Positions 23,484 through 41,952 of a stretch of DNA of 64,000 nucleotides are shown here, piece by piece. Each line of letters starts with the position of its first letter. Position 1 is the stretch's first letter. Source of the DNA: Chlamydiota bacterium (GTDB taxonomy: Bacteria; Auribacterota; Tritonobacteria; UBA1439); the NCBI GenBank assembly GCA_012729785.1, contig JAAYCL010000042.1:29743-93742 (forward strand). The letters run 5' to 3'. Both the position numbers and the translations under genes were made by a program. The notes under the pieces were generated by a model. The model did no database searches. It saw only the letters and a list, made by a program, of their open reading frames with translations, and was not told the DNA's origin.

Positions 23484-23942
23484 ATGTTCTACGGCCAGTT
23501 CAGACATTCGATTGACAGCAAGGGACGCCTGATCATCCCCGCCAAATTCAGGGACGCGCTCCGCGAGAATTACATCGAGAAGTTCTGGGTGACCCGCGGC
23601 ATCGAGCGCTGCGTCTACGTCTACACCCCGCGCGAGTGGAACCTCCTGATGGCGAAGTTCAAGGAGCTCTCCCTCACCGCCGGGAAGGCGAGGGACTTCC
23701 TCCGGGGCATGGTCTCCAACGCCTCCGAGGTCGAATGCGACAAGCAGGGGCGGATCATGCTCCCGCAGAACCTCCTCGCGCTCGCCGGGATCACCCGGGA
23801 CGTGGTGGTGGCGGGGATGCTGAGCAGGTTCGAGATATGGGACGAGGCGAGCTGGAAGAGGTACGAGGAGGAGCGAGGGGAGAACTTCGAGGAGATCGCC
23901 GAACAGCTCAACGCGCAGCTCGATGCGGCGCGGGGGCTGTGA
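23484..23942 (+). CDS. mraZ: Division/cell wall cluster transcriptional repressor MraZ
   Basis: MFYGQFRHSIDSKGRLIIP and DKQGRIMLP repeats. Confidence 0.95.
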   Translation: MFYGQFRHSIDSKGRLIIPAKFRDALRENYIEKFWVTRGIERCVYVYTPREWNLLMAKFKELSLTAGKARDFLRGMVSNASEVECDKQGRIMLPQNLLALAGITRDVVVAGMLSRFEIWDEASWKRYEEERGENFEEIAEQLNAQLDAARGL

Positions 23943-24031
23943 GGGGACCGGGCGGGGGGACGCGCACGACGATGCATGCGGCGACGGGATCGACGGTGTT
24001 CGGGAAGCTGGAATTCGGGAGGGGGGTTCTG

Positions 24032-24247
24032 ATGAGACCTGCTCGAACGAGAAGGCCGCTTGCCGAGAAGATCCTCTTCTGGTGCCCCAGACTCGCCTCG
24101 GCGCTCACCGCGGCATGCGCGAAGGATGCGCGGCGGGGGGGGGGCGACGCGGGGACGCTGGCGTCGATGATGGCCGTGAGCGGGAGCATCGACCGCGCGG
24201 GGCGGGCGAGGAACTACTACCGGTTCTACATCCGCCCGATGGCCTGA
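24032..24247 (+). CDS. Small hypothetical protein (71 aa; alternative start 23972) coupled to rsmH
   Basis: GGGAGG RBS; TGA overlaps the rsmH ATG (TGATG); mostly G/C third positions. Confidence 0.5.
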   Translation: MRPARTRRPLAEKILFWCPRLASALTAACAKDARRGGGDAGTLASMMAVSGSIDRAGRARNYYRFYIRPMA

Positions 24248-25173
24248 TGGATGCGCCCCACCTTCCGGTGATGCGGGAGGAGGCGCTGCGGTTGCTCGGC
24301 CTCCGGCCGGGGATGCGCGTGGTCGACGCGACGGTGGGGTGCGGGGGGCACGCGGAGGAGATCGCGAGGCGGATCGGGCCCGGCGGGGTGTTGGTGGGGC
24401 TCGATTGGGACGGGGAGGCGCTCGAGATCGCGCGGAGGCGGCTCGAGAAGGCGGGCCCGGCGGTGCGGTTGCACCGGCGAAGTTTCGCGGAGCTCGCGGC
24501 GGTGCTCGCGGAAGAGGGGATCGGGGAAGCGGACGCACTGCTCTTTGACCTCGGGGTTTCGAGCTTGCAGCTCGACACGGCGGCGCGAGGATTCGGGTTT
24601 CGCGCCCGGGGACCCCTGGATATGCGGATGGACCGGCGCCGCGGCGTCACCGCGGAGGCGCTCCTCAGGGAGAAGGATCCGCGGGAACTGGAGCGGATCT
24701 TCAGGGAGTACGGCGAGGAGACGCTGGCGCGGCCGATCGTTCGGGAGTTCCTCAGGGCGGGCGCGCCGCGCGACACGGAGGCGCTCGCCGGGATCGCGTC
24801 GCGGGTCTACCGGCGCTTCGGGAGGAAGGGCGCGATCCATCCGGCGACGCGGATCTTTCAGGCGCTCCGGATCGCGGTGAACGACGAGCTCGGCGCCCTC
24901 GCCGCGGCCCTGCCGCAGGCGGCGGCGGCGGCCGCGAAGGGGGCGCGGATCGTGGTGATCAGCTTTCACTCGCTCGAGGACCGGATCGTGAAGAGGGCGT
25001 TCGCGGAGGGGGCGCGCGGGTGCATCTGCCCGCCGGGATTGCCGGTCTGCGGGTGCGGCGCCGCGGCGGCGCTGCGGCTGATCACGCGCAAGCCGCTGCG
25101 GCCGACAGCCGAGGAGACGGCGGCGAACCCGCGGGCGCGGAGCGCGCGGTTGCGGGCGGCGGAGAAGCTGTAA
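24247..25173 (+). CDS. rsmH: 16S rRNA m4C1402 methyltransferase
   Basis: HLPVMREE, DATVGCGGH, DLGVSSLQLD, HPATRIFQALRIAVNDEL, ISFHSLEDRIVK, NPRARSARLR. Confidence 0.95.
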   Translation: MDAPHLPVMREEALRLLGLRPGMRVVDATVGCGGHAEEIARRIGPGGVLVGLDWDGEALEIARRRLEKAGPAVRLHRRSFAELAAVLAEEGIGEADALLFDLGVSSLQLDTAARGFGFRARGPLDMRMDRRRGVTAEALLREKDPRELERIFREYGEETLARPIVREFLRAGAPRDTEALAGIASRVYRRFGRKGAIHPATRIFQALRIAVNDELGALAAALPQAAAAAAKGARIVVISFHSLEDRIVKRAFAEGARGCICPPGLPVCGCGAAAALRLITRKPLRPTAEETAANPRARSARLRAAEKL

Positions 25174-25182
25174 ACGGCGTTG

Positions 25183-25329
25183 AACGCGCACACGGGGGCA
25201 GGCCGGGATGGACGGAAGATCTTTATCCGCATCCATTGAAGAGACCAGGAGCTGCGCGGTGCAGCTCGTCAATGATGCACCTCCAACCCTAAAGGTCCCT
25301 GCCGTCGCCGGTCCTGCTCCCGGCGCGTT
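25183..25329 (+). ncRNA. Candidate rod-shaped structured RNA with central bubble (6S-like or novel)
   Basis: About 52 nested base pairs traced by hand over 147 nt; three G-U pairs favour the + strand. Confidence 0.45.
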
Positions 25330-25366
25330 TTCGGATTCCGCGGCTCGAGGCGGGGAGGGCGGAGCG

Positions 25367-25711
25367 ATGCAGCGGGTCCTGATCGTCGACGACGAGCCGG
25401 TCGTGAGGAGGCTCATCGGGATATACCTGCGCGGGCGCTTCATCGTGGAGGAGGCCGAGGACGGCGAGAAGGCGCTTCGCAAGGCCGCCGGCGGCGGGTA
25501 CGACTACGTGATCACCGATGTGCAGATGCCGCGGATGGACGGTCTGCACCTGCTCGGGGAGCTCAAGCGGATCTGTCCGCGCACCTCGGTCATCGTGATG
25601 TCGGCGCTCGGCGAGCTCTACGCCGAGTCGGCGATGGAGCGCGGCGCGCAGACGGTCATCTCGAAACCGTTCGTGCGGGACACGATCCAAACCGCCCTGC
25701 AGTGCGCCTGA
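25367..25711 (+). CDS. Single-domain (CheY-like) response regulator
   Basis: VLIVDDE, ITDVQMP (phospho-Asp), VMSA and SKPF motifs; no output domain. Confidence 0.9.
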   Translation: MQRVLIVDDEPVVRRLIGIYLRGRFIVEEAEDGEKALRKAAGGGYDYVITDVQMPRMDGLHLLGELKRICPRTSVIVMSALGELYAESAMERGAQTVISKPFVRDTIQTALQCA

Positions 25712-25743
25712 ACGCGGCGCGCGGCGGCGGAGGAGGAGCGGGG

Positions 25744-26166
25744 ATGAGGAAGAGGAACCGGAGGCTCAACGAGGGGTTCTCGACCGCCGCGCTCACCGGC
25801 AGATGGATGCTCGTCGCCGTCATCGCGGTCTCGTTGTCGCTCCTCTACGTCTGGCAGCATGTGCAACTGGTGCGCACCGGGTACGCCATCAAGAGGATGG
25901 AGCGGGACCTCGAGAAGTGGCAGAAGGCCAACGAGGCGCTCCACCTCGCCAACGAGCGGCTGAAGAACCCGCAGCGCGTCGAACAGGCGCTCATGCACAA
26001 CAAGCTCGGCCTGGTCTTTCCGCAGGCCAAGGATATCGTCCGGCTTCGCTACCCCCGCCATTCAAAGGCATACGGGAGGGATATATCGGGGAGCGAAGGG
26101 GGCACCGACACTCTTCTGAGCTATATGAGTGGCGGGGGCAGCGCGGCCGGACGGCACAACAGCTAG
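25744..26166 (+). CDS. ftsL: Cell division protein FtsL-like
   Basis: Basic N-terminus, one TM helix, coiled coil ending LKNPQRVEQ..LGL; position just before the PBP gene. Confidence 0.75.
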   Translation: MRKRNRRLNEGFSTAALTGRWMLVAVIAVSLSLLYVWQHVQLVRTGYAIKRMERDLEKWQKANEALHLANERLKNPQRVEQALMHNKLGLVFPQAKDIVRLRYPRHSKAYGRDISGSEGGTDTLLSYMSGGGSAAGRHNS

Positions 26167-26257
26167 TGGCGGTCGCCCCGCCTCCAGGGGCGGGGGTGCG
26201 AGGCGCACCCGTTGTGGGGCGGGGGCGCGTCGGCGGACGCGAAAAGGCGAGTGTGCG

Positions 26258-27988
26258 GTGAGCGGGAACCGGTATCGGCTGAAGTCGTACTCTGTCTACG
26301 CGGTGTTCCTCCTCTGCTTCGCCGGCCTCTACGCCCGCCTCTACGTCCTCCAGATCGTCAACCACCGGGATCTGTCCACGCGCGGCGAGCAGCTCCACCG
26401 CTTCAACGTCAAGATCCAGCCGCGCCGCGGCACCATCCTGGATCGGGAGGGCCGCCCCCTCGCCATGAGCGTCAGCGTGAAGTCCGCCTACGCCGTCCCC
26501 GAGGTCATCGAGTCGCCCGCCGAGACGGCCGCGCTCATCGGGGGCGCGCTCGAGATCCCCCCGGCCGAGATCCTCGAGAAGCTCAACAGAAAATCCAGGA
26601 AGTTCGTCTGGCTCGCCCGGAAGCTCGACGGGAGGGCGGCGGAGCGGCTCGAGGCGCTCGGGCTCGAGGGGGTCGGCTTCCGCGAGGAGGTGCGGCGGGT
26701 CTACCCCCAGGGCGCCCTGCTGAGCCACGTCCTCGGCTTCGTGGATATCGACAACCGCGGGCTCGAGGGGCTCGAGCGCCACGCCGACGCGACCCTGCGC
26801 GGGCAGGCGGGCTGGATGGCCTCCTACCGCGACCGCAAGGGGCGGGAGATCATGACCCTCCGGCGGCGCGACGTGCAGCCGATCGACGGGGCCGACCTCA
26901 CCCTCACGCTGGACGTGGTCATCCAGCACATCGTCGAGAGCGAGCTCGAGAACGGCTGCCGCACCTTCAACGCCCAGGCGGGGTGCATCATCGTGATGAA
27001 CCCGCAGACCGGGGCGGTGCTCGCGATGAGCAGCTGGCCGACCTACGATCCGAACCGCCCCGCGGAGTACCCCCCCGAGGCGCGCCGCAACCGGTGCATC
27101 ACCGACGTCTTCGAGCCGGGTTCGACCTTCAAGGTCATCACGGTGGCCACCGCCCTGGACCGGGGCGTTGTGGCGATCGACGACAAGTTCTTCTGCGAGA
27201 ACGGCGCCTTCAGGGTCGGGAGGCACACCCTCCACGATGTGCACGCCTACGGGACGCTCACGACCGCGGAGATCGTGAAAAAGTCGAGCAACATCGGGGC
27301 CGTGAAGATCGCGATGGTGCTGGGGGAGGAGCAGCTGTACGAGGGGATACGGCAGTTCGGCTTCGGGTCGCCCACGGGGATCGGCCTCCCGGGCGAGGTG
27401 GCGGGGATACTGCATCCGCTGTCGACATGGTCCGGCCTCTCCATCGCGGCGGTCCCGATGGGGCAGGAGATCGGCGTGACGCCGCTCCAGCTCGCCTCGG
27501 CGGTCGCCGCGATCGCCAACGGCGGCCTGGCGATGAAGCCGTACCTCGTCGACTCTGTCCGGGACTCGTCGGGGCGCGTCGTGAAGACGTTCGCCCCGGA
27601 GGTGCGCGGGCGGGTGGTGCGCGAGGCCGCGGCGAAGCTGCTGTCGGAGGCGATGGAGGGGGTGCCGACCCGGGAGGGGACCGCGCCGAAGGCGGCGCTG
27701 GCGGAGTACACGGTCGCGGGGAAGACCGGGACCTCGCAGAAGGTCGAGCCCACCGGGCGCTACTCGCACTCGCGCTTCATCGGGTCGTTCATCGGGTTCG
27801 CCCCTTCGCGGAACCCGGAGGTGCTCGTGCTCGTCGTGCTGGACGAGCCGAGACCGGTCTACTACGGCGGGTCGGTGGCGGGCCCGATCTTCAAGGAGGT
27901 CGCGGGGAGGGTGCTCAAGTATCTCGGGGTGCCGCCGGACAAGGAGACGGACGGGAAGATCGAGGTGGCGATGGGGAGGCCGCGCTGA
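26258..27988 (+). CDS. ftsI: Class B penicillin-binding protein (FtsI/PBP3)
   Basis: RGTILDR, EPGSTFK (SxxK), KSSNIG (SxN) and AGKTGT (KTG) motifs. Confidence 0.92.
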   Translation: MSGNRYRLKSYSVYAVFLLCFAGLYARLYVLQIVNHRDLSTRGEQLHRFNVKIQPRRGTILDREGRPLAMSVSVKSAYAVPEVIESPAETAALIGGALEIPPAEILEKLNRKSRKFVWLARKLDGRAAERLEALGLEGVGFREEVRRVYPQGALLSHVLGFVDIDNRGLEGLERHADATLRGQAGWMASYRDRKGREIMTLRRRDVQPIDGADLTLTLDVVIQHIVESELENGCRTFNAQAGCIIVMNPQTGAVLAMSSWPTYDPNRPAEYPPEARRNRCITDVFEPGSTFKVITVATALDRGVVAIDDKFFCENGAFRVGRHTLHDVHAYGTLTTAEIVKKSSNIGAVKIAMVLGEEQLYEGIRQFGFGSPTGIGLPGEVAGILHPLSTWSGLSIAAVPMGQEIGVTPLQLASAVAAIANGGLAMKPYLVDSVRDSSGRVVKTFAPEVRGRVVREAAAKLLSEAMEGVPTREGTAPKAALAEYTVAGKTGTSQKVEPTGRYSHSRFIGSFIGFAPSRNPEVLVLVVLDEPRPVYYGGSVAGPIFKEVAGRVLKYLGVPPDKETDGKIEVAMGRPR

Positions 27989-28025
27989 AAATCGATCAGA
28001 AGGCGACGGGGAGGGGGCGGAACAG

Positions 28026-29480
28026 GTGAAGCTGGGCGAGCTGCTGGCCGCCGTGCCGGAGTGCCGGGTCAGGGGGGGGCGCGACGCGGAGATCGCGGGG
28101 CTGAGCCTCGATTCCCGGACGGTGCGGGAGGGGTTCCTCTTCGCCGCCCTCCCCGGCGCCCGGAGGGACGGCTGCGACTTCGTGGAGGACGCGGTGAGGC
28201 GGGGGGCGGCGGCGGTGCTCGCGCACCGGGAGATCCCCATCCACGGGCGCGTCCCGCTCGTCATCGCCCCCGACAGCCGGGCGGCGCTGGCGAGGATCGC
28301 GGACCGGTTTCACGGAAGCCCTTCACGCGAGCTCGCGGTGACCGGCGTGACCGGCACGAACGGGAAGACGACCGTCTGCTACCTCGCCCGTTTGATCCTC
28401 GATGCGGCGGGACACAAGACCGCCCTCCTCGGGACCGTGGAGTACCTCCTCGGGAAGCGCTCCATCCCCGCAGAACGCACGACGCCGGAGTCCCCGGCGC
28501 TCCAGGCGATGCTGCGGGAGGCGAAACGGGAGGGGTGCGACGGGGTGGTCATGGAGGTCTCCTCGCACGCGCTCGCGCAGCGCCGGATCGACTGCGTGCG
28601 GTTCGCCACCGCGGTCTTCACCAACCTCGGGCGCGACCACCTCGACTACCACGGCTCCCCGGACGGCTACTTCGAGGCCAAGGCGTCGCTCTTCGCCGCC
28701 CCCGGCCTCGGCCGCGCGGTGGTGAACGTCGACGACCCGCGCGGCCGCCTCCTCGCGGAGCGGAGCGCGGCGCCGGTGATCGCCTATGGGACCGGCGAGC
28801 GGGCGGCGCTCGCGGCGCGGGCGATCGAGACCGGGCCGCGCGGCAGCGGGTTCCAAATGGAGTACGAGGGGCGGCAGATGCCGGTCCGCCTGCCGCTCAT
28901 CGGCCGGCACAACGTGCTCAATGCGCTCGCGGCGGCGGGCGTCGCCCTGGTGGCGGGGGTCGAAGCGGAGGCGGCCGCGGAGGCCCTCTCGAGGGCGGAC
29001 CGGGTGCCGGGACGGCTCGAGGAGGTGCGGGGGAAGCTCCCGTTCCGTGTCTTCATAGACTACGCGCACACCGCCGAGGCGCTCGAGTGCGCCCTCGCCG
29101 CCGCCCGCGGGGCGGGCGGGGGGAACCTCATCGTCGTCTTCGGCTGCGGCGGCGACCGCGACCAATCGAAGCGCCGGCCGATGGGACGAACGGCCGCGCG
29201 GCTGGCGGACGCCGCGATCATCACCACGGACAACCCGCGGGGCGAGGACCCGCTCGAGATCATCGCGGAGATCAGGCGCGGCTTCGAGGAAACGGGGAAA
29301 CGCCCGGTCACGATCCCGGACCGGCGGGAGGCGATCGCGGCGGCTTTGGCGGGGGCGCGGGCGGGCGACGTGGTGCTGGTGGCGGGGAAGGGGCACGAGC
29401 GCACCCAGGAGATCGGGTCCACGGTCGTGCCGTTCAGCGACCGCGACGTCATCGCGGAACTGGCGGGGCCGGGCGAGTGA
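28026..29480 (+). CDS. murE: UDP-MurNAc-tripeptide synthetase
   Basis: GVTGTNGKTT, MEVSSHAL, TNLGRDHLDYH, IDYAHT, FGCGGDRD, DNPR (meso-DAP-type motif) and AGKGHE. Confidence 0.95.
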   Translation: MKLGELLAAVPECRVRGGRDAEIAGLSLDSRTVREGFLFAALPGARRDGCDFVEDAVRRGAAAVLAHREIPIHGRVPLVIAPDSRAALARIADRFHGSPSRELAVTGVTGTNGKTTVCYLARLILDAAGHKTALLGTVEYLLGKRSIPAERTTPESPALQAMLREAKREGCDGVVMEVSSHALAQRRIDCVRFATAVFTNLGRDHLDYHGSPDGYFEAKASLFAAPGLGRAVVNVDDPRGRLLAERSAAPVIAYGTGERAALAARAIETGPRGSGFQMEYEGRQMPVRLPLIGRHNVLNALAAAGVALVAGVEAEAAAEALSRADRVPGRLEEVRGKLPFRVFIDYAHTAEALECALAAARGAGGGNLIVVFGCGGDRDQSKRRPMGRTAARLADAAIITTDNPRGEDPLEIIAEIRRGFEETGKRPVTIPDRREAIAAALAGARAGDVVLVAGKGHERTQEIGSTVVPFSDRDVIAELAGPGE

Positions 29481-29548
29481 TCACGCGGGAGGAGAGGCGG
29501 GCGGGGCGGCCGGAGTGGCGCGGCCTGATCGGGAGGAGCGAGCTCCGG

Positions 29549-30946
29549 ATGGAACCGATGCGCATCGACGAGGTGCTCGAGGCGACGGGGGGGGCGCTCG
29601 CCGCGGGCGAGGCGGAGGGGGCGGTCGGCGCGGTGTGCATCGACAGCCGCCGCGCCCGGCCCGGCGGCCTCTTCATCGCCCTCAAGGGCGTGCGGTTCGA
29701 CGGGCACGACTATATCCCGGAGGCGCTCCGGAAAGGGTGCCGCGCCGTCGTCTTCTCGTCTCCGGACGTTCCGGCCCGCACGGCCGCGCGCGGGATCGCC
29801 TTCATCAGGGTGGCGGACACCCTCGACGCCTTCGCGCGGATCGCGCAGCGGCACCGGAGCCGCTTCGAACTGCCGCTCGTGGCGGTGACCGGCTCCAACG
29901 GCAAGACGACGACGAAGGAGATGATCCGCGCGATCGCCGCCTCCCGTTTCTCGGTTTTGGCGAGCGAGGGGACGTTCAACAACTTCGTCGGCGTGCCCCT
30001 GACCCTCCTCAGGATCGAGGCGTGGCACAGCCTCGCGGTCCTCGAGCTGGGGATGAACGCGCGGGGGGAGATACGCAGACTCGCGGAGATCGCGGCGCCC
30101 GATGTCGGGGTCGTGACGAACGTCGGGCCCGCCCACCTCGAGTTCCTGGAGACGCTCGAAAACGTCGCCGCCGCCAAGGCGGAGCTGCTCGATGCGATGG
30201 CGGCCCCCGGCCGCGGCAGGACCGCGGTGCTCAACCTCGACGATCCGCGGGTTGCCGCGATGGGCGGGCGCGCCGGCCTCGCGGTGAGGACCTTCGGCCT
30301 CAGGGAGGGGGCGGACGTGCGGGGCGAGGCGGTGCGCGCCGTGGAGGGGGGGGTGTCGTTCCGGATGCGCTTCATGCGCGCGGGGCGGGCGCTGGACGCG
30401 ACGCTCCCGGTCCTCGGGCTCCACAACGTCTCCAACGCCCTGGCGGCGGCCGCCGTCTGCGAGGTGCTGGGGATGGAACCGGAGGAGATCGCGGCGGCGA
30501 TGCGCGGGGTGCGGCTGCCGCCGATGCGGATGGAGCCGCTCTCACGCGGGGGGGTGGCGTTCATCAACGACGCCTACAACGCCAATCCCGCCTCGATGCG
30601 GGCGGCGGTCGAGACGCTCGCGGCGACCCGAACGAGCGGCAGGAGGATCCTGGTGGTCGGGGAGATGCTCGAGCTGGGAGCGGCCTCGGAGGAGGCGCAC
30701 CGCGGCATCGGGACCCTCGCCGCGGAGCGGGGGATCGACGCCCTGATCGCCGTCGGGCCCCTCGGCGCCTCCGCCGCCGACGCGGCGGCGGCGGCGGGGA
30801 TGCCCGCCGCATCCGTGGCCCGCTGCGCCGGCGTCGGCGAGGCGGCGGAGGCCCTCCGGGCGATGGCGCGGGAGGGGGACGTCGTGCTGCTCAAGGCGTC
30901 GCGGCGGGTGGGTCTGGAGAAGATGCTGGAGGGGTGGCGGCGGTAA
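29549..30946 (+). CDS. murF: UDP-MurNAc-pentapeptide synthetase
   Basis: AVTGSNGKTTTKEM, FNNFVGVPLT, ELGMN, AHLE, NDAYNANPASM, EMLELG and KASR. Confidence 0.95.
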   Translation: MEPMRIDEVLEATGGALAAGEAEGAVGAVCIDSRRARPGGLFIALKGVRFDGHDYIPEALRKGCRAVVFSSPDVPARTAARGIAFIRVADTLDAFARIAQRHRSRFELPLVAVTGSNGKTTTKEMIRAIAASRFSVLASEGTFNNFVGVPLTLLRIEAWHSLAVLELGMNARGEIRRLAEIAAPDVGVVTNVGPAHLEFLETLENVAAAKAELLDAMAAPGRGRTAVLNLDDPRVAAMGGRAGLAVRTFGLREGADVRGEAVRAVEGGVSFRMRFMRAGRALDATLPVLGLHNVSNALAAAAVCEVLGMEPEEIAAAMRGVRLPPMRMEPLSRGGVAFINDAYNANPASMRAAVETLAATRTSGRRILVVGEMLELGAASEEAHRGIGTLAAERGIDALIAVGPLGASAADAAAAAGMPAASVARCAGVGEAAEALRAMAREGDVVLLKASRRVGLEKMLEGWRR

Positions 30947-30970
30947 GGCGCACGAGACGGTGAGGGACGC

Positions 30971-32068
30971 ATGCTGTACTACATCCTGTACCCGCTGCGG
31001 GAGCGGTTCTTCGGCTTCAACGTCATCCGGTACATCACCTTCCGGTCCGTGGCGGCGGCCGTGACCGCGATGGTGCTGAGCATCGTCATCGGCCCGTGGG
31101 TGATACGGAAGCTGCACGAGCTCGAGATCGGCCAGCCCGTCCGGCGCGACTGGTTCCCCCTCTTCGCGCAGCACAAGGGCAAGGAGGGGACGCCCACCAT
31201 GGGCGGGGCGCTCGTCATCCTCGCGGTGCTCGTCTCCTGCGCCCTCTGGGCCGACATCCTGAACCGGTTCGTGCTCCTCGCCCTCTTCGCCCTCATCTGG
31301 CTCGGGGGGATCGGATTCATCGACGACTATTTGAAGGTGGCCAGGCGAAGCCCGCAGGGATTGGGCGCCAAGCGCAAGCTCGCGGGACAGGTCGTCCTCG
31401 GGCTCTTCGTGGGATTCTATCTCCTCCACCACCCGGTCACGGCGCCGTACGCCGCCGAGATCAGCGTGCCGTTCCTCAAGACGCCGGTGGTCACGGATCT
31501 GGGCCTCCTCTACATCGTCTTCGCCCTGCTCATCCTCGCCGGGAGCTCCAACGCGGTGAACCTCACCGACGGCCTCGACGGGCTGGCGATCGGCTGCGTG
31601 GTCAGCGCGGCCCTCGTCTACGCGGTGATGAGCTACGTGGCCGGCCACGCGCAGTTCGCCTCCTACCTCCAGATCCGCCACATCCCGGGGAGCGGGGAGC
31701 TGGCGGTCTTCTGCGCGGCCATCGTGGGCGCGGGGCTCGGCTTCCTCTGGTACAACGCCCACCCCGCCGATATCTTCATGGGCGATACGGGGTCGCTCGC
31801 CCTCGGCGGCGCCGTCGGGATCGTCGCCATCCTGATCAAGCGGGAACTCGCCCTGCTGCTGGTGGGCGGGGTCTTCGTGATGGAGGCCGTCTCGGTTATG
31901 CTCCAGGTCGCCTCGTTCAAGCTCACTGGGAAAAGGATCTTCCGGATGGCGCCGATCCACCACCATTTCGAGATGAAGGGGTGGTCCGAGACGAAGGTCG
32001 TGGTCCGGTTCTGGATCCTGGCGCTCGTTTTCGGGCTGATCGGGCTCGGGGCGTTGAAGCTGCAGTAG
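30971..32068 (+). CDS. mraY: Phospho-MurNAc-pentapeptide transferase
   Basis: KEGTPTMGG, GFIDDY, SNAVNLTDGLDGL, FMGDTGS, MAPIHHHFE. Confidence 0.97.
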   Translation: MLYYILYPLRERFFGFNVIRYITFRSVAAAVTAMVLSIVIGPWVIRKLHELEIGQPVRRDWFPLFAQHKGKEGTPTMGGALVILAVLVSCALWADILNRFVLLALFALIWLGGIGFIDDYLKVARRSPQGLGAKRKLAGQVVLGLFVGFYLLHHPVTAPYAAEISVPFLKTPVVTDLGLLYIVFALLILAGSSNAVNLTDGLDGLAIGCVVSAALVYAVMSYVAGHAQFASYLQIRHIPGSGELAVFCAAIVGAGLGFLWYNAHPADIFMGDTGSLALGGAVGIVAILIKRELALLLVGGVFVMEAVSVMLQVASFKLTGKRIFRMAPIHHHFEMKGWSETKVVVRFWILALVFGLIGLGALKLQ

Positions 32069-32110
32069 GACGCGCGCGGCGCGCGGCGGGACCGGAGAGG
32101 GCGGACGGGG

Positions 32111-33466
32111 ATGGAGCTGCGAGGGCGGGAGGTGCTGGTGCTGGGGATCGGGGAGAGCGGGACCGCCGCCGCGCGCCTCCTCGTGCGCGAGGGGGCGCAG
32201 GTGCGGTGCAGCGACGGCGGCGCGGGGCCCGAGGTGCGTCGCCGGGCCGCGGCGCTCGAGAAGATCGGGTGCCGGGTCGAGTTCGGGGGGCACACCGCGG
32301 ACTTTTCCCGCGGCGTCTCCCTCGCGGTGCTGAGCCCGGGGATCGACCCCTCGGTGCCCGCGGTGCGGCGGCTGCGGGACGCCGGGACCGAGCTGATCTC
32401 GGAGATCGAGCTCGCGTTCGCCCTCTGCCGGAGGCCGGTGACCGCGGTGACGGGGACCAACGGCAAGACCACCGTCGTGACCCTGATCGAGCGCATCCTG
32501 CGGGAGGACGGGCGGCGCGCAGACGCCTGCGGCAACATCGGCCGGGCATTCTCCGACTGCGTGCGAAACGACGGGGAGGAGGGGATCTTCGTGGTCGAGG
32601 CGAGCTCGTTCCAGCTCGAGGCGTCGCGCCGCTTCAGGCCGCGGGTCGCCGTCGCCTTGAACCTCTCCGACGACCACCTCGACCGTTACCGCACCATCGA
32701 GGAGTACGGCGCGGCGAAGGCGGCGATCTTCCGCAACCAGGGGGAGGGGGATTCGGCGCTCGTGAAGGCGGAGGAGCGCCCGGCGTGGGAGCGCCGGGGG
32801 CTGCGGAGGGGGCAGCGGATCCTGGAGTTCTCCGCGGCGCGGCGCGTCGCGGAGGGGGCGTGCCTCGACGGCGATGCGCTCACCCTGGTATCCGGGGGGA
32901 AGCGCGAGACGGTCTGCCGCAGGGACGAGCTGCCCCTCGCCGGGGGGCACGACCTCGAGAATGCGCTCGCCGCGGCCGCGGCCGCGGCGGCCTCCGGGGC
33001 CCGCCCGGCGTCGATCCGGCGGGTGTTGGGGGAATTCAAGGGCCTCCCGCACCGGATGGAGCCGGTCGGATCGCGAAACGGCGTCCTCTTCGTGAACGAT
33101 TCGAAGGCGACCAACCCCGACGCGGTGCGCCGCGCGCTGGAGTCGGCGAAGAAACCGGTGGTGCTCATCGCCGGGGGGAGGGACAAGGGGTTCGACTACG
33201 CGCAGCTCCGCGCCGCGGTCAGGCACGCGGCCAAGGGGGTCGTGCTCTTCGGCGAGGCGCGCGACACGATGGCGCGCGCGTTGTCGGGCGCGGCGCCGAT
33301 CCGTCTCGCGGGAACGCTCGAGGAGGCGGTGCGGGCGGCGGCGGATCAGGCGGAACCGGGGGAGACGGTGCTGCTCTCGCCGGCGTGCGCGAGCTACGAT
33401 ATGTTCAAGAACTACGAGGAGCGGGGGGATGCGTTCAAGCGGATCGTCGGGCAACTGCGCCCCTGA
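32111..33466 (+). CDS. murD: UDP-MurNAc-L-Ala:D-Glu ligase
   Basis: SPGI, TGTNGKTT, EASSFQL, DHLDRY, NDSKATN, GGRDKG, SPACASYDMF. Confidence 0.95.
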   Translation: MELRGREVLVLGIGESGTAAARLLVREGAQVRCSDGGAGPEVRRRAAALEKIGCRVEFGGHTADFSRGVSLAVLSPGIDPSVPAVRRLRDAGTELISEIELAFALCRRPVTAVTGTNGKTTVVTLIERILREDGRRADACGNIGRAFSDCVRNDGEEGIFVVEASSFQLEASRRFRPRVAVALNLSDDHLDRYRTIEEYGAAKAAIFRNQGEGDSALVKAEERPAWERRGLRRGQRILEFSAARRVAEGACLDGDALTLVSGGKRETVCRRDELPLAGGHDLENALAAAAAAAASGARPASIRRVLGEFKGLPHRMEPVGSRNGVLFVNDSKATNPDAVRRALESAKKPVVLIAGGRDKGFDYAQLRAAVRHAAKGVVLFGEARDTMARALSGAAPIRLAGTLEEAVRAAADQAEPGETVLLSPACASYDMFKNYEERGDAFKRIVGQLRP

Positions 33467-33505
33467 ACCCCGCCTGCTGAAACGACGGAGGGAAAGGAGG
33501 ACCGG

Positions 33506-34354
33506 ATGAGCAGGAGAACCCTGGTGGCGGTGGTGGCCGCGGCGCACCTGTGCGTGCTCGTCGTGCTGGCGCTGAGCGGCGGCTGCGCCTTCGACAGGAA
33601 GGAGCCGAAGCTGATGGCGGCGGGGCCCGTGCAGGAGATCCGCGCGCCGGAGGGTGAGCCGGAGTCCATCCTCGAACCGAAGGGGATGGCGGAGGAGTTG
33701 GACCTGCTGGTGTCGCGCGAACCGGAGCTGATCCCGGCCGTGCGGGAAGAGGCCGTGGAGCCGGAAGCGGCCGCGGCGGCGACCGCCGCCCCCCCGACCC
33801 CGCTGCCGTTCGTCGAGGCGCCGCCCGCGGCGGAGAAGGCGGAAGCGCCCGGTAAAGAAACGATCGCCGAGGCGCCCGCCGGGACGACGCACAAGGTCGC
33901 GCCCGGCGAGAGCCTCTGGAAGATCGCGCGCAGGTACGGGCTCACCGTCGCCGAGCTCGCCTCGCACAACAACCTCCCCCCCGACGCGCGGCTGAAGGCC
34001 GGCCGGCTGCTCTCCGTGCCGGCGCCGTCGGCGGGCGCGGCGGCGCCCGCGGCCGCCGCGGCGCCCGCGGCCGCCGCGGTGACCGAGACCGCCCGGCCGG
34101 CCGTCGTCGCGGAGCCCGCGAGGGGGCCGGTCATCCGGCGGCCCGCCCCACGCCCCGCGGCGCGGGCCGTCGCCCCGGCGGCGCCGCGCCCCGGCGCGGC
34201 GGCGGTCACGCGGCATCTGGTGAAGAAGGGGGAGACCCTCTCGTCGATCGCCAGGATGCACGGCGTGCCGTTGCAGCGGATCGTCGCCGCCAATGAGATC
34301 AAGGACGCGGGGAGGATACGCGCGGGGCAGGTTTTGACGATACCGCTCCGGTAG
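33506..34354 (+). CDS. Lipoprotein with two LysM domains
   Basis: Lipobox LSGGC; HKVAPGESLWKIARRYG and HLVKKGETLSSIARMHG; Ala/Pro linker. Confidence 0.9.
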   Translation: MSRRTLVAVVAAAHLCVLVVLALSGGCAFDRKEPKLMAAGPVQEIRAPEGEPESILEPKGMAEELDLLVSREPELIPAVREEAVEPEAAAAATAAPPTPLPFVEAPPAAEKAEAPGKETIAEAPAGTTHKVAPGESLWKIARRYGLTVAELASHNNLPPDARLKAGRLLSVPAPSAGAAAPAAAAAPAAAAVTETARPAVVAEPARGPVIRRPAPRPAARAVAPAAPRPGAAAVTRHLVKKGETLSSIARMHGVPLQRIVAANEIKDAGRIRAGQVLTIPLR

Positions 34355-34405
34355 CGTGGCGGCGCGGGCGAAACGGACAACGGCAGGCGGAAGAGGGAAC
34401 AACCG

Positions 34406-35542
34406 GTGAACCAGCGGACGTTGCTCTTCTTCACGGTGATCGCGCTTTTGGGCATCGGCATCGTGATGATCTACTCCACGAGCGCCATCTTCGCCCAGGA
34501 GCGCTTCGGGGACGGGTACTACTACCTGAAGCGCCAGGCGCTCTGGGTGTTCATCGGCCTCGCCGCCTTCGCCGCGGCCATGAACGTCGACTACCACCGG
34601 CTCCGCGCGCACAGCCTCACGCTGGTCTTCGCCAGCATCGCCCTCCTCGCGCTTGTCTTCGTTCCCGGGGTCGGGAGGACGGCGGGGGGGGCGAGCCGCT
34701 GGATCAGGATGGGGCCGGTCAACTTCCAGCCGTCCGAGTTCGCCAAGCTCGCCGTCGTCCTCTACATGGCGGACGTGATGGCGAGGAAACAGCGCCAGAT
34801 CGCCCTGTTCTGGAAAGGGCTGGCGCTGCCGCTCGCCCTCTTCGGGGGGATGCTCTGCATGATCATGCTCCAGCCGGATCTGGGGACGACGATCCTCTGC
34901 GCGCTCGTCATCGGCATACTGCTGTTCGTGGCGGGGGTGCGGATGCGCCTCCTCCTCCCGCTCTGCCTCGCCGCCCTGCCCGCGATCTACGCGCTTGTCT
35001 TCAGTTCCGACTACCGGAGGAGGCGGATCCTGGCGTTCGTGAATCCGTGGGCGGACCCGGAGGGGACCGGTTTCCAGATCATCCAGTCGTTCATCGCCCT
35101 CGGCTCCGGCGGGGTCGCGGGGCTCGGGCTCGCCCAGAGCCGACAGAAGTTCTACTACCTCCCCGCGGCGCACACGGATTTCATCTTCTCCATCATCGGG
35201 GAGGAGCTCGGCATCCTCGGGGCGGGCGCCGTCGTCACGCTGTTTTTGGGCCTGCTCGTCTTCGGGATGCGGGTGTGCGCGAAGGCGCCCGACCTGTACG
35301 GGCACCTGCTGGCACTCGGGATCGTCTCGATGCTCACCCTCCAGGCGCTGATCAACATCGCGGTGGTGACCGGGAGCCTGCCGACGAAAGGGTTGCCGCT
35401 CCCGTTCATCAGCTTCGGCGGATCGAGCATGATCTTCAACCTGTTCTCCCTTGGGGTGCTGATGAACATCGGCAGGCACGAGGGGACGGACCAGGTGGCG
35501 CACTATCTCGAGAGCCGTTCCGACAGGACGATGCGCATATGA
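34406..35542 (+). CDS. ftsW: SEDS family peptidoglycan polymerase FtsW
   Basis: GASRWI, FQPSEFAK, LQPDLGT, LPAAHTDFIFSIIGEELG, LPFISFGGSS. Confidence 0.95.
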   Translation: MNQRTLLFFTVIALLGIGIVMIYSTSAIFAQERFGDGYYYLKRQALWVFIGLAAFAAAMNVDYHRLRAHSLTLVFASIALLALVFVPGVGRTAGGASRWIRMGPVNFQPSEFAKLAVVLYMADVMARKQRQIALFWKGLALPLALFGGMLCMIMLQPDLGTTILCALVIGILLFVAGVRMRLLLPLCLAALPAIYALVFSSDYRRRRILAFVNPWADPEGTGFQIIQSFIALGSGGVAGLGLAQSRQKFYYLPAAHTDFIFSIIGEELGILGAGAVVTLFLGLLVFGMRVCAKAPDLYGHLLALGIVSMLTLQALINIAVVTGSLPTKGLPLPFISFGGSSMIFNLFSLGVLMNIGRHEGTDQVAHYLESRSDRTMRI

Positions 35543-36654
35543 GGATCGCCTTCGCGGCGGGGGGGACCGGCGGGCACCTGTACCCGGCGATCGCCGTCGC
35601 GGAGGCGCTCGCGGCGGCGGGCCGCGCGCATGACTGCTTCTTCTTCGTGTCGCGGCGCGGCGTCGAGCGGAGGATACTGGAGGGCGGCGGGTTCCCGTTC
35701 GCGGAGCTGCCGGCGTGCCCGGTCGCGTCCGCCGCGCCGCACCGGCTCCTGCCCGCGGCGGCGCGGATGCTGTGGGCCTACCGGGCGGCGCGGCGGCTGA
35801 TGCGGGAGCGAAACACCGAGGTGCTGGTCGGTTTCGGGGCGTACGCGTCGGTGCCGCCCGCCTTGGCGGCGCGCGCCCTGGGGCTCGGCCTGGTTATCCA
35901 CGAGGCGAACGCGGTGATGGGGAGGGCGAACCGGCTGCTGAGGCGCGTCGCGCACGCGGTCGCGTTGGGGATGCCGCAGGGGGAACGCCGAGGCGAAACG
36001 CCGGGGGAGGTCACCGGCACCCCGCTCCGCGCCGGGATCCTGCGCGGGGCCGACCGGAACGAGTCGCGCCGGCTGCTCGGCCTCGCGCCCGACCGGTTCA
36101 CCCTCCTCGTGACGGGGGGGAGCCAGGGGGCGCGCGCCTTGAACGGGGCGGCGGCGGGGGCGGCGGGGGCGTTCACGCGCGAGGGGATCCAGGTGCTGCA
36201 CCTCGCGGGGGAGGAGGGATGCAGCGAAGTGCGGGAGGCGTACCGCCTCGCGGGGCTGGCGGGCGCGGTGCTGCCGTACCTCGGCGGGATGGAGCGGGCG
36301 TACGCCGCGGCGGACATCGCCGTCTGCCGCGCGGGGGCGATGACGCTCGCCGAACTCGCGCAGGCCGGGCTTCCGGCGATCGCGGTGCCGTTCCCGGGGG
36401 CGACCGGGAACCACCAGGAGGCCAACGCCCGCTTCTACGAGAGGGCGGGCGGCGTGCGGGTGCTCCCGGAGCGCGATCTGACGCCGGGGCGCCTGGCCGA
36501 ACTGGTGATCGGGTGCATGCGCAGCCGCGCGGAGAGGGAGGCGATGTCGCGCGCCATGCGCGCCGCGGCGAGGCCGGACGCCGCGGCGCGGGTGGCGGAG
36601 ATCGTCGAGAGGGTTGCGGGACGGCGGAGGGGAGGCCGGAGACGAGATGCGTGA
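35539..36654 (+). CDS. murG: UDP-GlcNAc:lipid I transferase
   Basis: GGTGGHLYP, HEANAVMGRAN, GGSQGA, RAGAMT, HQEANA. Confidence 0.95.
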   Translation: MRIAFAAGGTGGHLYPAIAVAEALAAAGRAHDCFFFVSRRGVERRILEGGGFPFAELPACPVASAAPHRLLPAAARMLWAYRAARRLMRERNTEVLVGFGAYASVPPALAARALGLGLVIHEANAVMGRANRLLRRVAHAVALGMPQGERRGETPGEVTGTPLRAGILRGADRNESRRLLGLAPDRFTLLVTGGSQGARALNGAAAGAAGAFTREGIQVLHLAGEEGCSEVREAYRLAGLAGAVLPYLGGMERAYAAADIAVCRAGAMTLAELAQAGLPAIAVPFPGATGNHQEANARFYERAGGVRVLPERDLTPGRLAELVIGCMRSRAEREAMSRAMRAAARPDAAARVAEIVERVAGRRRGGRRRDA

Positions 36655-37555
36655 CGCCGCCCTCCAGGGACGCCTCCGCGAGCTGTTCGGGGCGCGGGTC
36701 CGCTTCGACGAACCGCTCGCCCTGCACACGAGCCTGCGGATCGGCGGGGCCGCGGAGGCGTGGGTCGAGGCGGAGACGGAGGAGGAGCTCCGGCAGCTTC
36801 TCTCCCTCTGCGCGGAGAGGGGGGCGCCGTTCCTGGCGGTCGGCGGGGGGACGAACCTCCTGGTGCGGGACGGCGGCTTTCGCGGTGTCGCGGCGCGGCT
36901 CGCCGGACGACTCGCGGAGACGCGTTTCGACGGCCGCGAAGCGGTGTCGGGCGGAGGCGCCCGGCTCCAGACGCTCGTCGCGGGGGCGCTGCGGCGCGGC
37001 CTCGCCGGCCTCGAGCGCCTCGCCGGGATCCCGGGCACGGTGGGCGGCGCGGTGCGGATGAACGCGGGGGCGGGCGGCGCGGCGATCGGGGACAGGGTCG
37101 CATGGGCGCGCCTCCTCGATCCCTCGGGCGCGGCGCGCCGGGTGGAGGGAACGGCGATGGGTTTCGGCTACCGCGAGTGCGGGGCGGCGCGCAGGGCGGT
37201 CGTCGTGGAGGTCGGCCTGGCGCTCGTTCCGGGCGACCCGTCGGCCCTGGCCGCCGAGGCGGAGGCACGCCTGCGGAGCCGGGCGGAGCGGCTCCCGGAT
37301 GAGCCGAGCGCCGGCTGCGTATTCAGGAACCCGCCCGGCGGGCCGCCCGCAGGGGCGCTCATCGAGCGGCTCGGCCTGAAGGGGGCCCGGGAGGGCGGCG
37401 CCGCGGTGCATGCGCGGCACGCGAACGTGATCGTGAACCGCGGCTCCGCCACGGCCGCCGACGTGCTGTCCCTGATGGGCCTGATCGAGGAGAGGGTCCG
37501 CGAGGCGACGGGGACGGTTTTGGTGCCGGAACTGGTCGTGGAGGGGGAGGGATGA
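36647..37555 (+). CDS. murB: UDP-N-acetylenolpyruvylglucosamine reductase
   Basis: HTSLRIGG, GGGTNLLV, GIPGTVGGAVRMNAG, SAGCVFRNP, HANVIVN. Confidence 0.93.
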   Translation: MRDAALQGRLRELFGARVRFDEPLALHTSLRIGGAAEAWVEAETEEELRQLLSLCAERGAPFLAVGGGTNLLVRDGGFRGVAARLAGRLAETRFDGREAVSGGGARLQTLVAGALRRGLAGLERLAGIPGTVGGAVRMNAGAGGAAIGDRVAWARLLDPSGAARRVEGTAMGFGYRECGAARRAVVVEVGLALVPGDPSALAAEAEARLRSRAERLPDEPSAGCVFRNPPGGPPAGALIERLGLKGAREGGAAVHARHANVIVNRGSATAADVLSLMGLIEERVREATGTVLVPELVVEGEG

Positions 37556-37580
37556 CGGGGGATACGGGGGGATCAGGCGG

Positions 37581-38477
37581 ATGAGGAAGAAGGGGAACGT
37601 CAAACTGCGGAAGGGTCGCCGCACGATCGTCTTCAACGTCGACGTGGCGCGCCGGCGGCGCGCGCGGGAGCAGCACGCCGCGCACGACCGCGCCGCCCTG
37701 TGGCGGCGGGCCAAGCTCGCCGCGGCGATCGCCGCGGCGGCGGCCCTCGGCCTCCTCGGCACGGCGAGCGTCCGAGAGCGGTTCCAGACGCCGCCGCGCT
37801 TCACGGTCCGGTGGATCGAGGTCGCCAACGAGGAGACGCTCTCGAAGCGGGAGATCGCCGCCATCTCCCGCGTGCAGGTCGGCGACAACCTGATCACCGC
37901 GGACCTCGAGGCGGTCCGCCGGCGCCTCTGCGCGCACCCCGATATACGGGACGCCGTCGTGAGCCGGAGGATCCCAGGGGGGATCCTGGTGCGGGTCTAC
38001 GAGCGCACCCCGATCGCCGCGGTGGAGGCGGGGGGGCGCTATGTGCTCGACGAGGAGGGCTTCGTCCTCTCCCCGAAGAAGGCGGCGGCGTGCCGCGCCC
38101 TTCCGTTTGTCACCGGCCCGTCATTCAAGGCGCTTCGGCCGGGCGACCGCATGCGCAGCCCCGCCGTCCGCCGGGCGCTCGACGTCGTCAAGACCTGCCG
38201 CGAAACGGAGCTCGGCGGGCAGGTCGAGCTTGTGGGCGTGGACGTGCGCGACCCGGAGAACACGGTGCTGCGGTCCGGTTCCATACAGGAGATACGGATG
38301 GGCGGCGACGACCTCGACGAGCGGCTCCGGCTGCTGTCGTTCGTGCTGAAGCAGCGGAGATTGCGCGGCATCGAGGGGCCGGCCTCCTATCTCGATCTGC
38401 GCTGGAAGGACGTCGCCGAGATGCCGCTGCGGCGGGACGTGGCCTCGGTGCGTTCGTCGCGGGGAGGGGCGGAATGA
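37581..38477 (+). CDS. ftsQ: Cell division protein FtsQ/DivIB
   Basis: TM helix, POTRA-like segment, VYERTPIA, YLDLRWK; position before ftsA. Confidence 0.85.
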   Translation: MRKKGNVKLRKGRRTIVFNVDVARRRRAREQHAAHDRAALWRRAKLAAAIAAAAALGLLGTASVRERFQTPPRFTVRWIEVANEETLSKREIAAISRVQVGDNLITADLEAVRRRLCAHPDIRDAVVSRRIPGGILVRVYERTPIAAVEAGGRYVLDEEGFVLSPKKAAACRALPFVTGPSFKALRPGDRMRSPAVRRALDVVKTCRETELGGQVELVGVDVRDPENTVLRSGSIQEIRMGGDDLDERLRLLSFVLKQRRLRGIEGPASYLDLRWKDVAEMPLRRDVASVRSSRGGAE

Positions 38478-39712
38478 CGGCCGGCGCGAACCTCGTCATC
38501 GGTCTCGACGTCGGCACGACCGCGGTGCGGACCGTCGTGGCGGAGCTGGACCGCGAGACGCGGTCGCTCCGGGTCATCGGCCTCGGCCACGCCGCGGCGC
38601 GGGGGCTCCGCAAGGGGCTGGTGACGAACCTGGACGGGGCCGTCGAATCGATCACCCGCTCCGTCGAGGACGCCGAGAAGATGGCGAATGTGGAGATCCA
38701 CTCGGTCTTCGCCGGGATCACCGGGGGGCACGTCAGGTCGTTCAACAGCCGCGGCGTCGCGGCGATCGGCGAGGGGGGGGAGATAGGCCGCAAGGACGTG
38801 GATCGCGCGATCGCGGCGGCGCGCGCCGTCTCGCTCTCGGCCGACCGGGAGATCCTCCACACGATCCCCCAGGAGTTCACCGTCGACGGGCAGGCGGGGA
38901 TATGGGAGCCGGAGGGGATGGCGGGGGTCCGCCTCGAGGCGGAGGCGCACATCGTCACCGGAACCATCACGGCCGCGCAGAACATCGTCAAGGCCGTCAA
39001 CAAGGCGGGGTTCGAGGTGGAGGATATCGTCCTCCAGTCGCTCGCCGAGAGCATCGCGGTCCTCGGCGAGGACGAGAAGAACTCCGGCGTGCTGCTCGTC
39101 GGGCTCGGGGGAGGGACGACCGGCTTCGCCGCGTTCCACCGCGGCTGCATCCGCCGGTCGGGGGTGCTCGCCGTCGGCGGCGACCACGTCACCAACGACA
39201 TCTCGGTCGCGCTCAGGGTGCCGATCACGCTCGCTGAGGAGGCCAAGGTGACATGGGGCAGCATGGCGGAGGAGCGCGCGGAGGCGGGGGAGGAGATCGA
39301 GGTGCCGCCGTCGCCGGGCCGGGACGCGTTCCGTTTCGGGCGGCGGGACCTCGCGCGGGTGATCGAGAGCAGGATGACCGAGATCCTCACGCTCGTCAGG
39401 CGCCAGGCGGACCGGTCGGGGCTGCGCCGGATGATGGCCGCGGGGGTGGTGCTCACGGGCGGCGGCGCGCTCGGCGACGGGGCTGTCGAACTCGCGGCGA
39501 GGATCTTCGACCTCCCGGTGCGGATCGGGAGACCGGCCGGAATCTCGGGCATCTCGGAGGCGCTGGACAACCCCGTCTTCGCGACCGGGACCGGCCTCGC
39601 CCTGTACGGGCAGCGGATGAGGAACGAGGGGAGGGTCTCCCGGTTCAGGCGGCGGGGCCGTCTGTCGCGCGCCGCGGACCGGCTGCGGGAGTGGGTGGGG
39701 AAGCGTTTCTGA
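38474..39712 (+). CDS. ftsA: Cell division protein FtsA
   Basis: GLDVGTT, GLRKG, GVRLEAEAHIV, GGDHVTNDI, GVVLTGGG. Confidence 0.95.
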   Translation: MTAGANLVIGLDVGTTAVRTVVAELDRETRSLRVIGLGHAAARGLRKGLVTNLDGAVESITRSVEDAEKMANVEIHSVFAGITGGHVRSFNSRGVAAIGEGGEIGRKDVDRAIAAARAVSLSADREILHTIPQEFTVDGQAGIWEPEGMAGVRLEAEAHIVTGTITAAQNIVKAVNKAGFEVEDIVLQSLAESIAVLGEDEKNSGVLLVGLGGGTTGFAAFHRGCIRRSGVLAVGGDHVTNDISVALRVPITLAEEAKVTWGSMAEERAEAGEEIEVPPSPGRDAFRFGRRDLARVIESRMTEILTLVRRQADRSGLRRMMAAGVVLTGGGALGDGAVELAARIFDLPVRIGRPAGISGISEALDNPVFATGTGLALYGQRMRNEGRVSRFRRRGRLSRAADRLREWVGKRF

Positions 39713-39750
39713 CCTTCCGTCCCCGTCACGGGTGCAAGGAGGGAAGATCG

Positions 39751-40887: not shown

Positions 40888-41042
40888 TCCGCCGCCTGCG
40901 GAAGACGATTCGGGGCGACCGCCGGCCAGTTACCCACACTCGCCTCTGGACGGTCGGCCGCCCTGATCTTCATTGCACGGGGCCCACAGGAGCCCTGAAA
41001 ACCGAAGGTGGCCGGACCCGGGCGCAGCGCCGCTGCGCGCAC

Positions 41043-41079
41043 TCCGCGGTTGAACGGGGGGGGCGGGATAGGGTATAGT
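41043..41079 (+). promoter_or_regulatory. sigma70-like promoter carrying a TCCGCGGTTGAACG element
   Basis: TTGAAC(41050)-18-TATAGT(41074). Confidence 0.55.
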
Positions 41080-41105
41080 CTGTGCCGCACGGGGGGAGGC
41101 GGACG

Positions 41106-41910: not shown

Positions 41911-41952
41911 GTCGCCGTCGCACCGGTCTGGATCATCGGGAGGAGGTTCACA

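Follow-up and report, generated by a model that had tools for sequence, protein, structure and literature searches.

The division and cell wall (dcw) operon in the DNA analysed here carries, between rsmH and the gene of a CheY-like receiver protein, an RNA rod of ~130 nucleotides (nt) with four helices (P1 to P4). The rod is conserved through compensatory base changes, lies on the plus strand, occurs as a single copy in a syntenic position and is non-coding. Judged from the comparison of related loci, it is a genuine, previously undescribed structured RNA family of a narrow, uncultured clade. The window, i.e., the whole stretch that was analysed, comprises 64,000 nt of contig JAAYCL010000042.1 (GCA_012729785.1), positions 29,743 to 93,742 of the forward strand; coordinates given below are those of the window unless a relative is named.

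Fold of the element and its conservation in relatives

Positions 25183-25329 of the plus strand were folded with ViennaRNA and compared with 200 dinucleotide shuffles. The minimum-free-energy (MFE) fold has 54 base pairs (bp), all in one unbranched rod, and an energy of -74.7 kcal/mol, while the shuffles reach -54.2 +/- 3.9 kcal/mol (z = -5.25; 0/200 as stable). The minus strand gives a weaker fold (z = -3.4) of a different, branched shape. An earlier note on this DNA had traced the pairings of such a rod by hand; every one of them is present in the MFE fold, and so is the asymmetric loop of UCC versus ACCUCCAACCC (25279-25289). Its count of ~52 bp with three G-U pairs was slightly low, the fold having four G.U pairs (25197/25318, 25209/25304, 25214/25300 and 25220/25295), and a second, 9-nt loop at 25240-25248 had gone unmentioned. 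The parts of the element, all on the plus strand, are listed here with the evidence on which each is based.

25183-25329 (+): whole element, 147 nt as first delimited; match to covariance models R1 and R2
25183-25189 (+): P0 5' arm, AACGCGC, pairing over 7 bp with GCGCGUU at 25323-25329; lineage-specific extension
25193-25215 (+): P1 basal stem, G-rich 5' arm, CGGGGGCAGGCCGGGAUGG-A-CGG, partner 25299-25322; covariation
25299-25322 (+): P1 basal stem, C-rich 3' arm, CUGCCGUC-G-CCGG-U-CCUGCUCCCG; MFE fold, single folds and covariation
25218-25225 (+): P2 5' arm, GAUCUUUA, AU-rich, partner 25290-25297; fold and covariation
25290-25297 (+): P2 3' arm, UAAAGGUC; fold and covariation
25226-25228 (+): internal loop, 5'-side strand UCC, 3 nt, variable in sequence (minority counts 6, 6 and 3 among 12 sequences)
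25279-25289 (+): internal loop, 3'-side strand ACCUCCAACCC, 11 nt, invariant (0 substitutions in 12 sequences), including an anti-Shine-Dalgarno-like CCUCC
25229-25239 (+): P3 5' arm, GCAUC-C-AUUGA, partner 25269-25278; fold
25269-25278 (+): P3 3' arm, UCAAUGAUGC, nearly invariant, AU-rich helix; column variability
25240-25248 (+): asymmetric 5'-side loop AGAGACCAG, 9 nt in the window and 9-12 nt overall, variable in sequence; alignment
25249-25267 (+): P4 apical hairpin, GAGCUGC-GCGGU-GCAGCUC; 100% of cells pair; loop variability
25270-25289 (+): longest invariant run CAAUGAUGCACCUCCAACCC, 20 nt; 12/12 full-length distinct sequences

The basal pairings within the fold are CGGGGGCAGG/CCUGCUCCCG, CCGG/CCGG, GAUGG/CCGUC and CGG/CUG. 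The two internal loops, of 3 versus 11 nt and of 9 versus 1 nt, are each one-sided; they are offset on opposite strands by the 10-bp helix P3. The extent of ~147 nt put forward in the earlier note agrees with the fold obtained in the window, but the outermost 7-bp stem, P0, is common to the window and its closest relative (L081) only, and the flanks differ in all other members. On this comparison, P0 is outside the conserved core, the limits of which are ~GGGGG (25194) and ~CCC (25321).

Relatives were found via RsmH in a large metagenomic protein collection, and DNA was taken around eleven RsmH proteins. The closest RsmH among GTDB species representatives is 51% identical. The metagenomic proteins form a series graded from 87% to ~62% identity, one of them carrying the name Candidatus Aureabacteria, which now corresponds to the phylum Candidatus Auribacterota of the Planctomycetes-Verrucomicrobia-Chlamydiae (PVC) group. 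Every fetched locus with at least 62% RsmH identity has the same gene order, including a small open reading frame (ORF) and the receiver gene, with the element in the gap between rsmH and the receiver gene. Element and receiver are present together in every clade locus. Both are absent in the outgroup, a 56% relative (L099, L100), which also has neither the small ORF nor the gap. Negative controls were provided by 80 dcw loci of other phyla, taken from a GTDB genome scan with RsmH; the covariance model did not find the element in any of them. A metagenome scan with the core 20-mer on both strands, which misses variants such as those of L096 and L098 (UAGAG instead of UAAAG), yielded five further instances, all in the same context, plus one chance match. 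No copies were found in viral contigs, phages or plasmids.

Measured in nine loci, the distance between the element and the receiver start is 6-43 nt; L094 has one of 52 nt. That between the rsmH stop and the element ranges from ~0 to 249 nt; it varies this widely because long palindromic hairpins are inserted on that side in four relatives. Long hairpin insertions are tolerated upstream of the element only. The inserted hairpin has the termini AAACCACYGA...TCAGTGGTTT, directly follows the rsmH stop in four lower-GC relatives and is not in the window. Its coordinates are 2151-~2380 in L089, 3936-~4060 in L096, 1828-2076 in L098 and 3440-3509 in L101, where it is 70 nt long and folds with -38.9 kcal/mol. 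It looks like an insertion of the type of a miniature inverted-repeat transposable element (MITE) or repetitive extragenic palindromic (REP) sequence, or like a terminator-like hairpin.

Each of nine distinct sequences, when folded alone, gives the same rod, and the covariance model matches each clade locus over the full length with 89-161 bits. Covariation was examined in a model-based alignment of 13 distinct sequences (an earlier version with 11 gave a similar result). Standard pairs fill 91.8% of the cells, as compared to 36-51% after a shift of the 3' partners by one to three columns, and 16 pairs are changed on both sides versus 6.2 +/- 1.6 in shuffles, a number reached by 0/500 of these. 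The covariation across the rsmH-ftsL intervals of relatives, which the earlier note had proposed as a check, is present. The covariance model was built on the rod structure, and fitting the alignment to it introduces a bias toward that structure; the single-sequence folds, which are independent of the model, and the controls with shifted partners argue that the structural signal is real.

In the basal helix (P1 and P2, counted together by the tool), 14 of 30 pairs have changes on both sides, and L086 and L087 make a near-perfect P1 stem from a different sequence. In P2, CUUUA/UAAAG is invariant in 10/12 sequences; in L096 and L098 the helix persists by way of an A-to-G change (U.G) and a register shift of one base. 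Two of the seven pairs of P4 are compensatory, with A-U replaced by G-C in L087 and C-G by U-A in L096 and L098. GCG, with which the apical loop GCGGU begins, is invariant. P3 hardly varies at all. It has a U.G pair that is kept in 12/13 sequences, and CAUUGA (25234-25239) is changed in L086 only (CAUUGG). The variation that P3 has is found in 4/10 columns of its 5' strand, often with mismatches, and in 1/10 columns of its 3' strand. The asymmetry is modest; it suggests that the 3' strand is constrained by more than pairing.

Model scores in the clade are 147-161 bits on the plus strand versus 19-26 on the minus strand. In the window, R1 gives 154.8 and R2 146.8 bits on the plus strand and 20 and 18.9 bits on the minus strand; a search of all 64 kb with filters off found one copy, that of 146.8 bits, the runner-up being the 18.9-bit match to the opposite strand at this position. 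The positions of several G.U pairs are conserved as well. Because of these pairs and the low reverse-strand scores, the functional strand is the plus strand, which is also that of the genes.

Invariance was counted over 12 distinct full-length sequences. Nucleotide identity of the element to that in the window is 70-93%, which is about equal to that of the flanking genes. Over the same set the amino-acid identity of RsmH drops to 62% and that of the receiver to 60%, and since these proteins diverge while CAAUGAUGCACCUCCAACCC does not, its invariance is one at the nucleotide level. The invariant segment of the 3' strand measures 20-23 nt and is made up of the P3 3' arm, the exposed C-rich loop ACCUCCAACCC and the start of the P2 3' arm; the UCC strand and the 5'-side loop vary freely. 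The 11-nt loop has a predicted mean probability of being unpaired of 0.86-0.99 in 10/12 sequences and of 0.66-0.67 in L096 and L098. The length of the rod is nearly constant, with model matches of 145-148 nt. Invariant nucleotides at an internal loop, backed by covariation, are a feature that the element has in common with riboswitch aptamers. Structured RNAs with such covariation and an invariant core of 20 nt are rare, and those studied are usually functional.

Identity of the element

Comparison with Rfam 15 gave nothing relevant, neither at gathering thresholds in the window, nor at E <= 10 in the locus (25000-25500), nor at E <= 1 in four relatives; the cmscan search of 25000-25500 at E <= 10 returned four chance matches, none of them 6S RNA. 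In the literature, no paper was found on an RNA between rsmH and ftsL, and the literal invariant string matches unrelated primers only. Among the possibilities raised in the earlier note, that of a novel non-coding RNA has held up: the structure is conserved, covarying, strand-specific and without an Rfam family. The mraW RNA motif of Rfam, which occurs in Actinomycetales upstream of mraW/rsmH, is likewise a conserved RNA motif near the start of the dcw cluster. It precedes mraW while the element described here follows it, it belongs to a different phylum, and its Rfam model gives no match.

The first idea in the earlier note was a divergent 6S RNA. Such an RNA would mimic an open promoter and sequester the RNA polymerase holoenzyme, which is very improbable here. 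The element resembles 6S RNA (RF00013) in being a rod of ~147 nt, close to 150 nt, with paired ends and internal loops, and the fold implies that melting of P3 would give a two-sided bubble of ~22-23 nt per strand between P2 and P4. However, no 6S, 6S-Flavo or related model matches at E <= 10, nor does one at E <= 1 in the four relatives. The loops are staggered instead of forming a large two-sided central bubble, and the invariant sequence is restricted to the 3' side; the variable 5'-side loop is unlike the conserved template for product RNAs. We know of no 6S gene that is embedded in, and co-transcribed with, a dcw operon.

That the element might be mobile, of the MITE/REP type, or part of a small protein or an N-terminal extension of the receiver that runs across the hairpin, is barely credible. 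The arms do form an imperfect inverted repeat, and the earlier note had suggested a miniature palindromic element, of which many dispersed copies would be the mark. There is, however, a single copy in 64 kb, all other instances occupy the same syntenic slot and none was detected in viral contigs, phages or plasmids; moreover, the arms covary and contain G.U pairs. With regard to coding, an ORF that starts with the ATG at 25208 continues in frame into the receiver gene in the window and L082, and ORFs of 54-60 amino acids (aa) are reported here by gene callers. This ATG is absent from 4/9 sequences, and L089, L096 and L098 have stops in every frame. The fusion frame, open in the window and L082, is not conserved. 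The invariant run has no third-position wobble. Pfam gave no match for the peptide across the element, and a comparison of the spurious peptide with a collection of 5.8 billion proteins produced just one match, the 60-aa call. In gene calls the element is rendered as an extension of the receiver by 53 aa at the N-terminus (25208-25711) or as separate 'proteins' of 54-60 aa. Examples of such calls are 3946-4128 in L083 and 3332-3496 in L084, and one (P0121) is in a public protein collection. From the sequence comparison, the ORFs called over the element are annotation artefacts.

A classical terminator or attenuator, the latter also proposed in the earlier note, was rejected as well. UUUU follows the stem in the window only and not in the relatives, and scans for terminators on the plus strand of the window, L089, L096 and L098 gave nothing at the site of the element. 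A conserved alternative pairing is lacking, the only one proposed being no better than shuffles. This was a two-state switch, with the 5' arm pairing with the loop and the 3' arm with the Shine-Dalgarno (SD) sequence; it came from RNAalifold, applied to a MAFFT alignment in which the register of the 3' arm is wrong. It was discarded with fractions of 0.10-0.55 versus shuffled loops, and it breaks in L086 and L089. Sequestration of the SD sequence in cis by the CCUCC of the loop was no better than with shuffled loops and is sterically implausible in L086. No promoter was detected at the element, while the same scan did find sigma-70-like promoters elsewhere in the window.

Candidate functions in the dcw message

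Our tentative preference, held with somewhat less than even confidence, is that the element acts as an operon-internal leader or recognition RNA, in cis, for the part of the message that comprises the receiver gene, ftsL and ftsI. It would be transcribed within the dcw operon message, between rsmH and the gene of the CheY-like receiver. Displayed on a rod whose length is fixed, the invariant segment could be a docking surface for a conserved trans-acting partner, be it a protein, an RNA or a small ligand. As a leader, the element would set the translation or the stability of the part of the message from the receiver gene to ftsI. Its stable GC-rich basal stem might in addition form a barrier to processing or decay, by which the mraZ-rsmH part is uncoupled from the downstream part. 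This reading is preferred because the short distance to the receiver start is kept and that to rsmH is free, and because element and receiver co-occur.

Several points weigh against it. An expression platform was not found, and the SD sequence of the receiver gene is outside the rod and not sequestered. Pairing of the loop with this SD sequence is no better than that of shuffled loops, and alternative folds lack support. A uniform SD-based mechanism is also unlikely in view of L086, where the rod lies against the start region (~14 nt) and an SD sequence is barely present. Co-occurrence with the receiver could be a consequence of common descent in a narrow clade and not of function, and the spacing argument is based on 13 distinct sequences only. 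Finally, the fixed length of the rod, its closed G5/C5 ends and the invariant single strand fit a stand-alone stable RNA equally well.

A stable small RNA (sRNA) of this kind, acting in trans after being cut from the dcw transcript, is the main rival; it is on balance unlikely, albeit with a real chance of being correct. The closed GC-rich rod would protect the molecule against RNases; the C-rich loop would serve as a toehold, and P2 and P3 would open to extend the pairing with G-rich, SD-like targets, a proposal to which the same limited likelihood applies. The pattern of an invariant strand of 20-23 nt opposite a P3 5' partner that varies (4/10 versus 1/10 columns) is seed-like, the loop is predicted to be unpaired, the rod has a constant length of 145-148 nt and its ends are paired. 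Processing from the operon is in line with the lack of a promoter and terminator of its own. There is also a precedent: the dcw operon of E. coli yields stable, conserved RNA fragments (decRNAs), such as a 173-nt fragment derived from ftsI (PMC6156199). The decRNAs share with the element a nucleotide conservation above that of the surroundings and stable helices at the ends. They are located inside coding sequences of Enterobacteriaceae, whereas the element is intergenic and belongs to an Auribacterota-like clade, and the two have no sequence or structure in common.

The search for targets in the window and in neighbouring initiation regions lent no support to such an sRNA. Potential targets in the window are at chance level (seven matches versus 3.0 expected, all with three mismatches), and no initiation region among those of mraZ, the small ORF, rsmH, the receiver gene, ftsL and ftsI stands out in nine loci; none of the candidates from the window or the neighbouring initiation regions was convincing. 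When metagenomes were scanned for the 20-mer, both strands included, the element itself was all that came up, and there was no complementary site. Moreover, the spacing to the receiver start and the co-occurrence would be left unexplained, and the asymmetry in P3 is modest.

The rod may also be a sensor RNA, which would couple the division signalling protein and ftsL/ftsI to a cellular signal, either as a metabolite aptamer or as a reader or mimic of the 3' end of 16S rRNA. This is doubtful, with a small chance of being right. In one version, the aptamer would bind, e.g., a precursor of the cell wall or a nucleotide second messenger. Rod-shaped riboswitch aptamers with a conserved internal loop are known, among them the THF-II (folE) and xanthine (NMT1) motifs. 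Like the element, these are unbranched hairpins just upstream of a gene, with invariant nucleotides at the internal loop and in the flanking helices. The element differs from them in being two to three times longer, in that no expression platform or alternative pairing was detected and in that it matches no aptamer in Rfam. In the other version, reading of 16S rRNA would, if true, link ribosome status to division. Two motifs within 25279-25289 match 16S rRNA: CACCUCC has the sequence of its anti-SD end, and UCCAACC is the complement of its conserved GGUUGGA, which lies just upstream of the anti-SD. Such 7-nt matches to 16S rRNA are within chance (by a rough estimate, a few per cent), and the 16S rRNA of the lineage itself is outside the window. 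The element adjoins the 16S methylase gene rsmH.

The hairpin might also be purely structural and without specific recognition, i.e., an RNase III site, a 3'/5' stability barrier or a terminator without U-tract, set between the mraZ-rsmH message and the genes that follow. The very stable basal duplex of ~30 bp directly follows the rsmH stop, and four relatives carry another long hairpin at the same junction. Duplexes of ~30 bp are typical substrates of RNase III. Such a hairpin would need neither an invariant run of 20 nt nor an 11-nt loop, invariant GCG bases at the apex or a fixed length, and in most members the U-tract after the stem is missing. We consider this reading improbable.

Slightly more improbable still is an element that directs processive antitermination by RNA polymerase and secures read-through of the long dcw operon. 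The models for it are EAR (eps-associated RNA) and put; structured intergenic RNAs such as these are located early in a long operon and act within the nascent transcript (PMC7858274). What the element shares with them is that it is structured, conserved and placed between genes near the beginning of a long operon, and its extreme invariance would fit a conserved partner such as RNA polymerase. However, it matches neither the EAR model nor any other in Rfam, and Rho-independent, terminator-like sites are not enriched downstream (4 versus 5.7 +/- 2.2 expected in 25330-45300). Furthermore, the architecture of a single unbranched rod is unlike that of the known antitermination RNAs.

Neighbouring genes and meaning of the finding

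The neighbours of the element, all on the plus strand, are in this order a MazG-like gene, mraZ, a 91-92-aa ORF, rsmH, the element, the receiver gene, ftsL, ftsI, murE and murF. The rsmH stop is 9 nt upstream of the element and the ATG of the receiver gene 37 nt downstream of it.

23484-23942 (+): mraZ
23972-24247 (+): 91-92-aa ORF, its stop overlapping the ATG of rsmH
24244-25173 (+): rsmH, 16S rRNA m4C1402 methyltransferase (Pfam PF01795, E = 6e-95)
25367-25711 (+): CheY-like single-domain response-regulator receiver, 114 aa (Pfam PF00072, E = 5.5e-26; generic in NCBIfam)
25744-26166 (+): ftsL, weak family match (TIGR02209, E = 1.6e-4, below the curated cutoff), named also on its position and its penicillin-binding protein and Mur ligase neighbours

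The small 91-92-aa ORF is kept in every clade member and has the C-terminus ...NYRFYIRPM. As a candidate RNA-binding partner it was compared with Pfam, NCBIfam and PDB, and it has no family in any of them; an apparent repeat match (P0133) was a false lead, the protein being one with PKD repeats. Since this marker has just 11 representatives among 1.84 billion proteins, the clade is a narrow one. The outgroup is without the ORF, the RNA element and the receiver alike, and because the three are absent together, the ORF may belong to the same clade-specific module. The MazG-like gene (PF12643; 22900-23214, plus strand) is the gene directly before mraZ wherever the flank of a relative is long enough, and an untranslated gap of ~260-690 nt separates the two.

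Between the rod and the SD sequence of the receiver gene, at ~25338-25355 (+) in the window, most members carry a short hairpin that is rich in GC and variable in sequence. It is clearest in L082, L083 and L089 and missing in L086.

Beyond the dcw genes, two sigma-70-like promoter matches are present on the plus strand at 41050-41079 and 41882-41910, with TTGAAC, a spacer of 17-18 nt and TATAGT or TATACT. A 46-nt direct repeat has its two copies, 832 nt apart, at 41021-41066 and 41853-41898, and the promoter matches start near their ends. The sole Rfam matches at gathering score in the window are two tRNA genes on the minus strand, at 60961-61049, with a long variable arm, and at 62506-62578.

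As the clade is narrow and uncultured, the function of the RNA will be hard to test in its native host. The covariance model would correct annotations in which the element is translated. The finding points to a lineage-specific module for the control of cell division in a little-known phylum of the PVC group.

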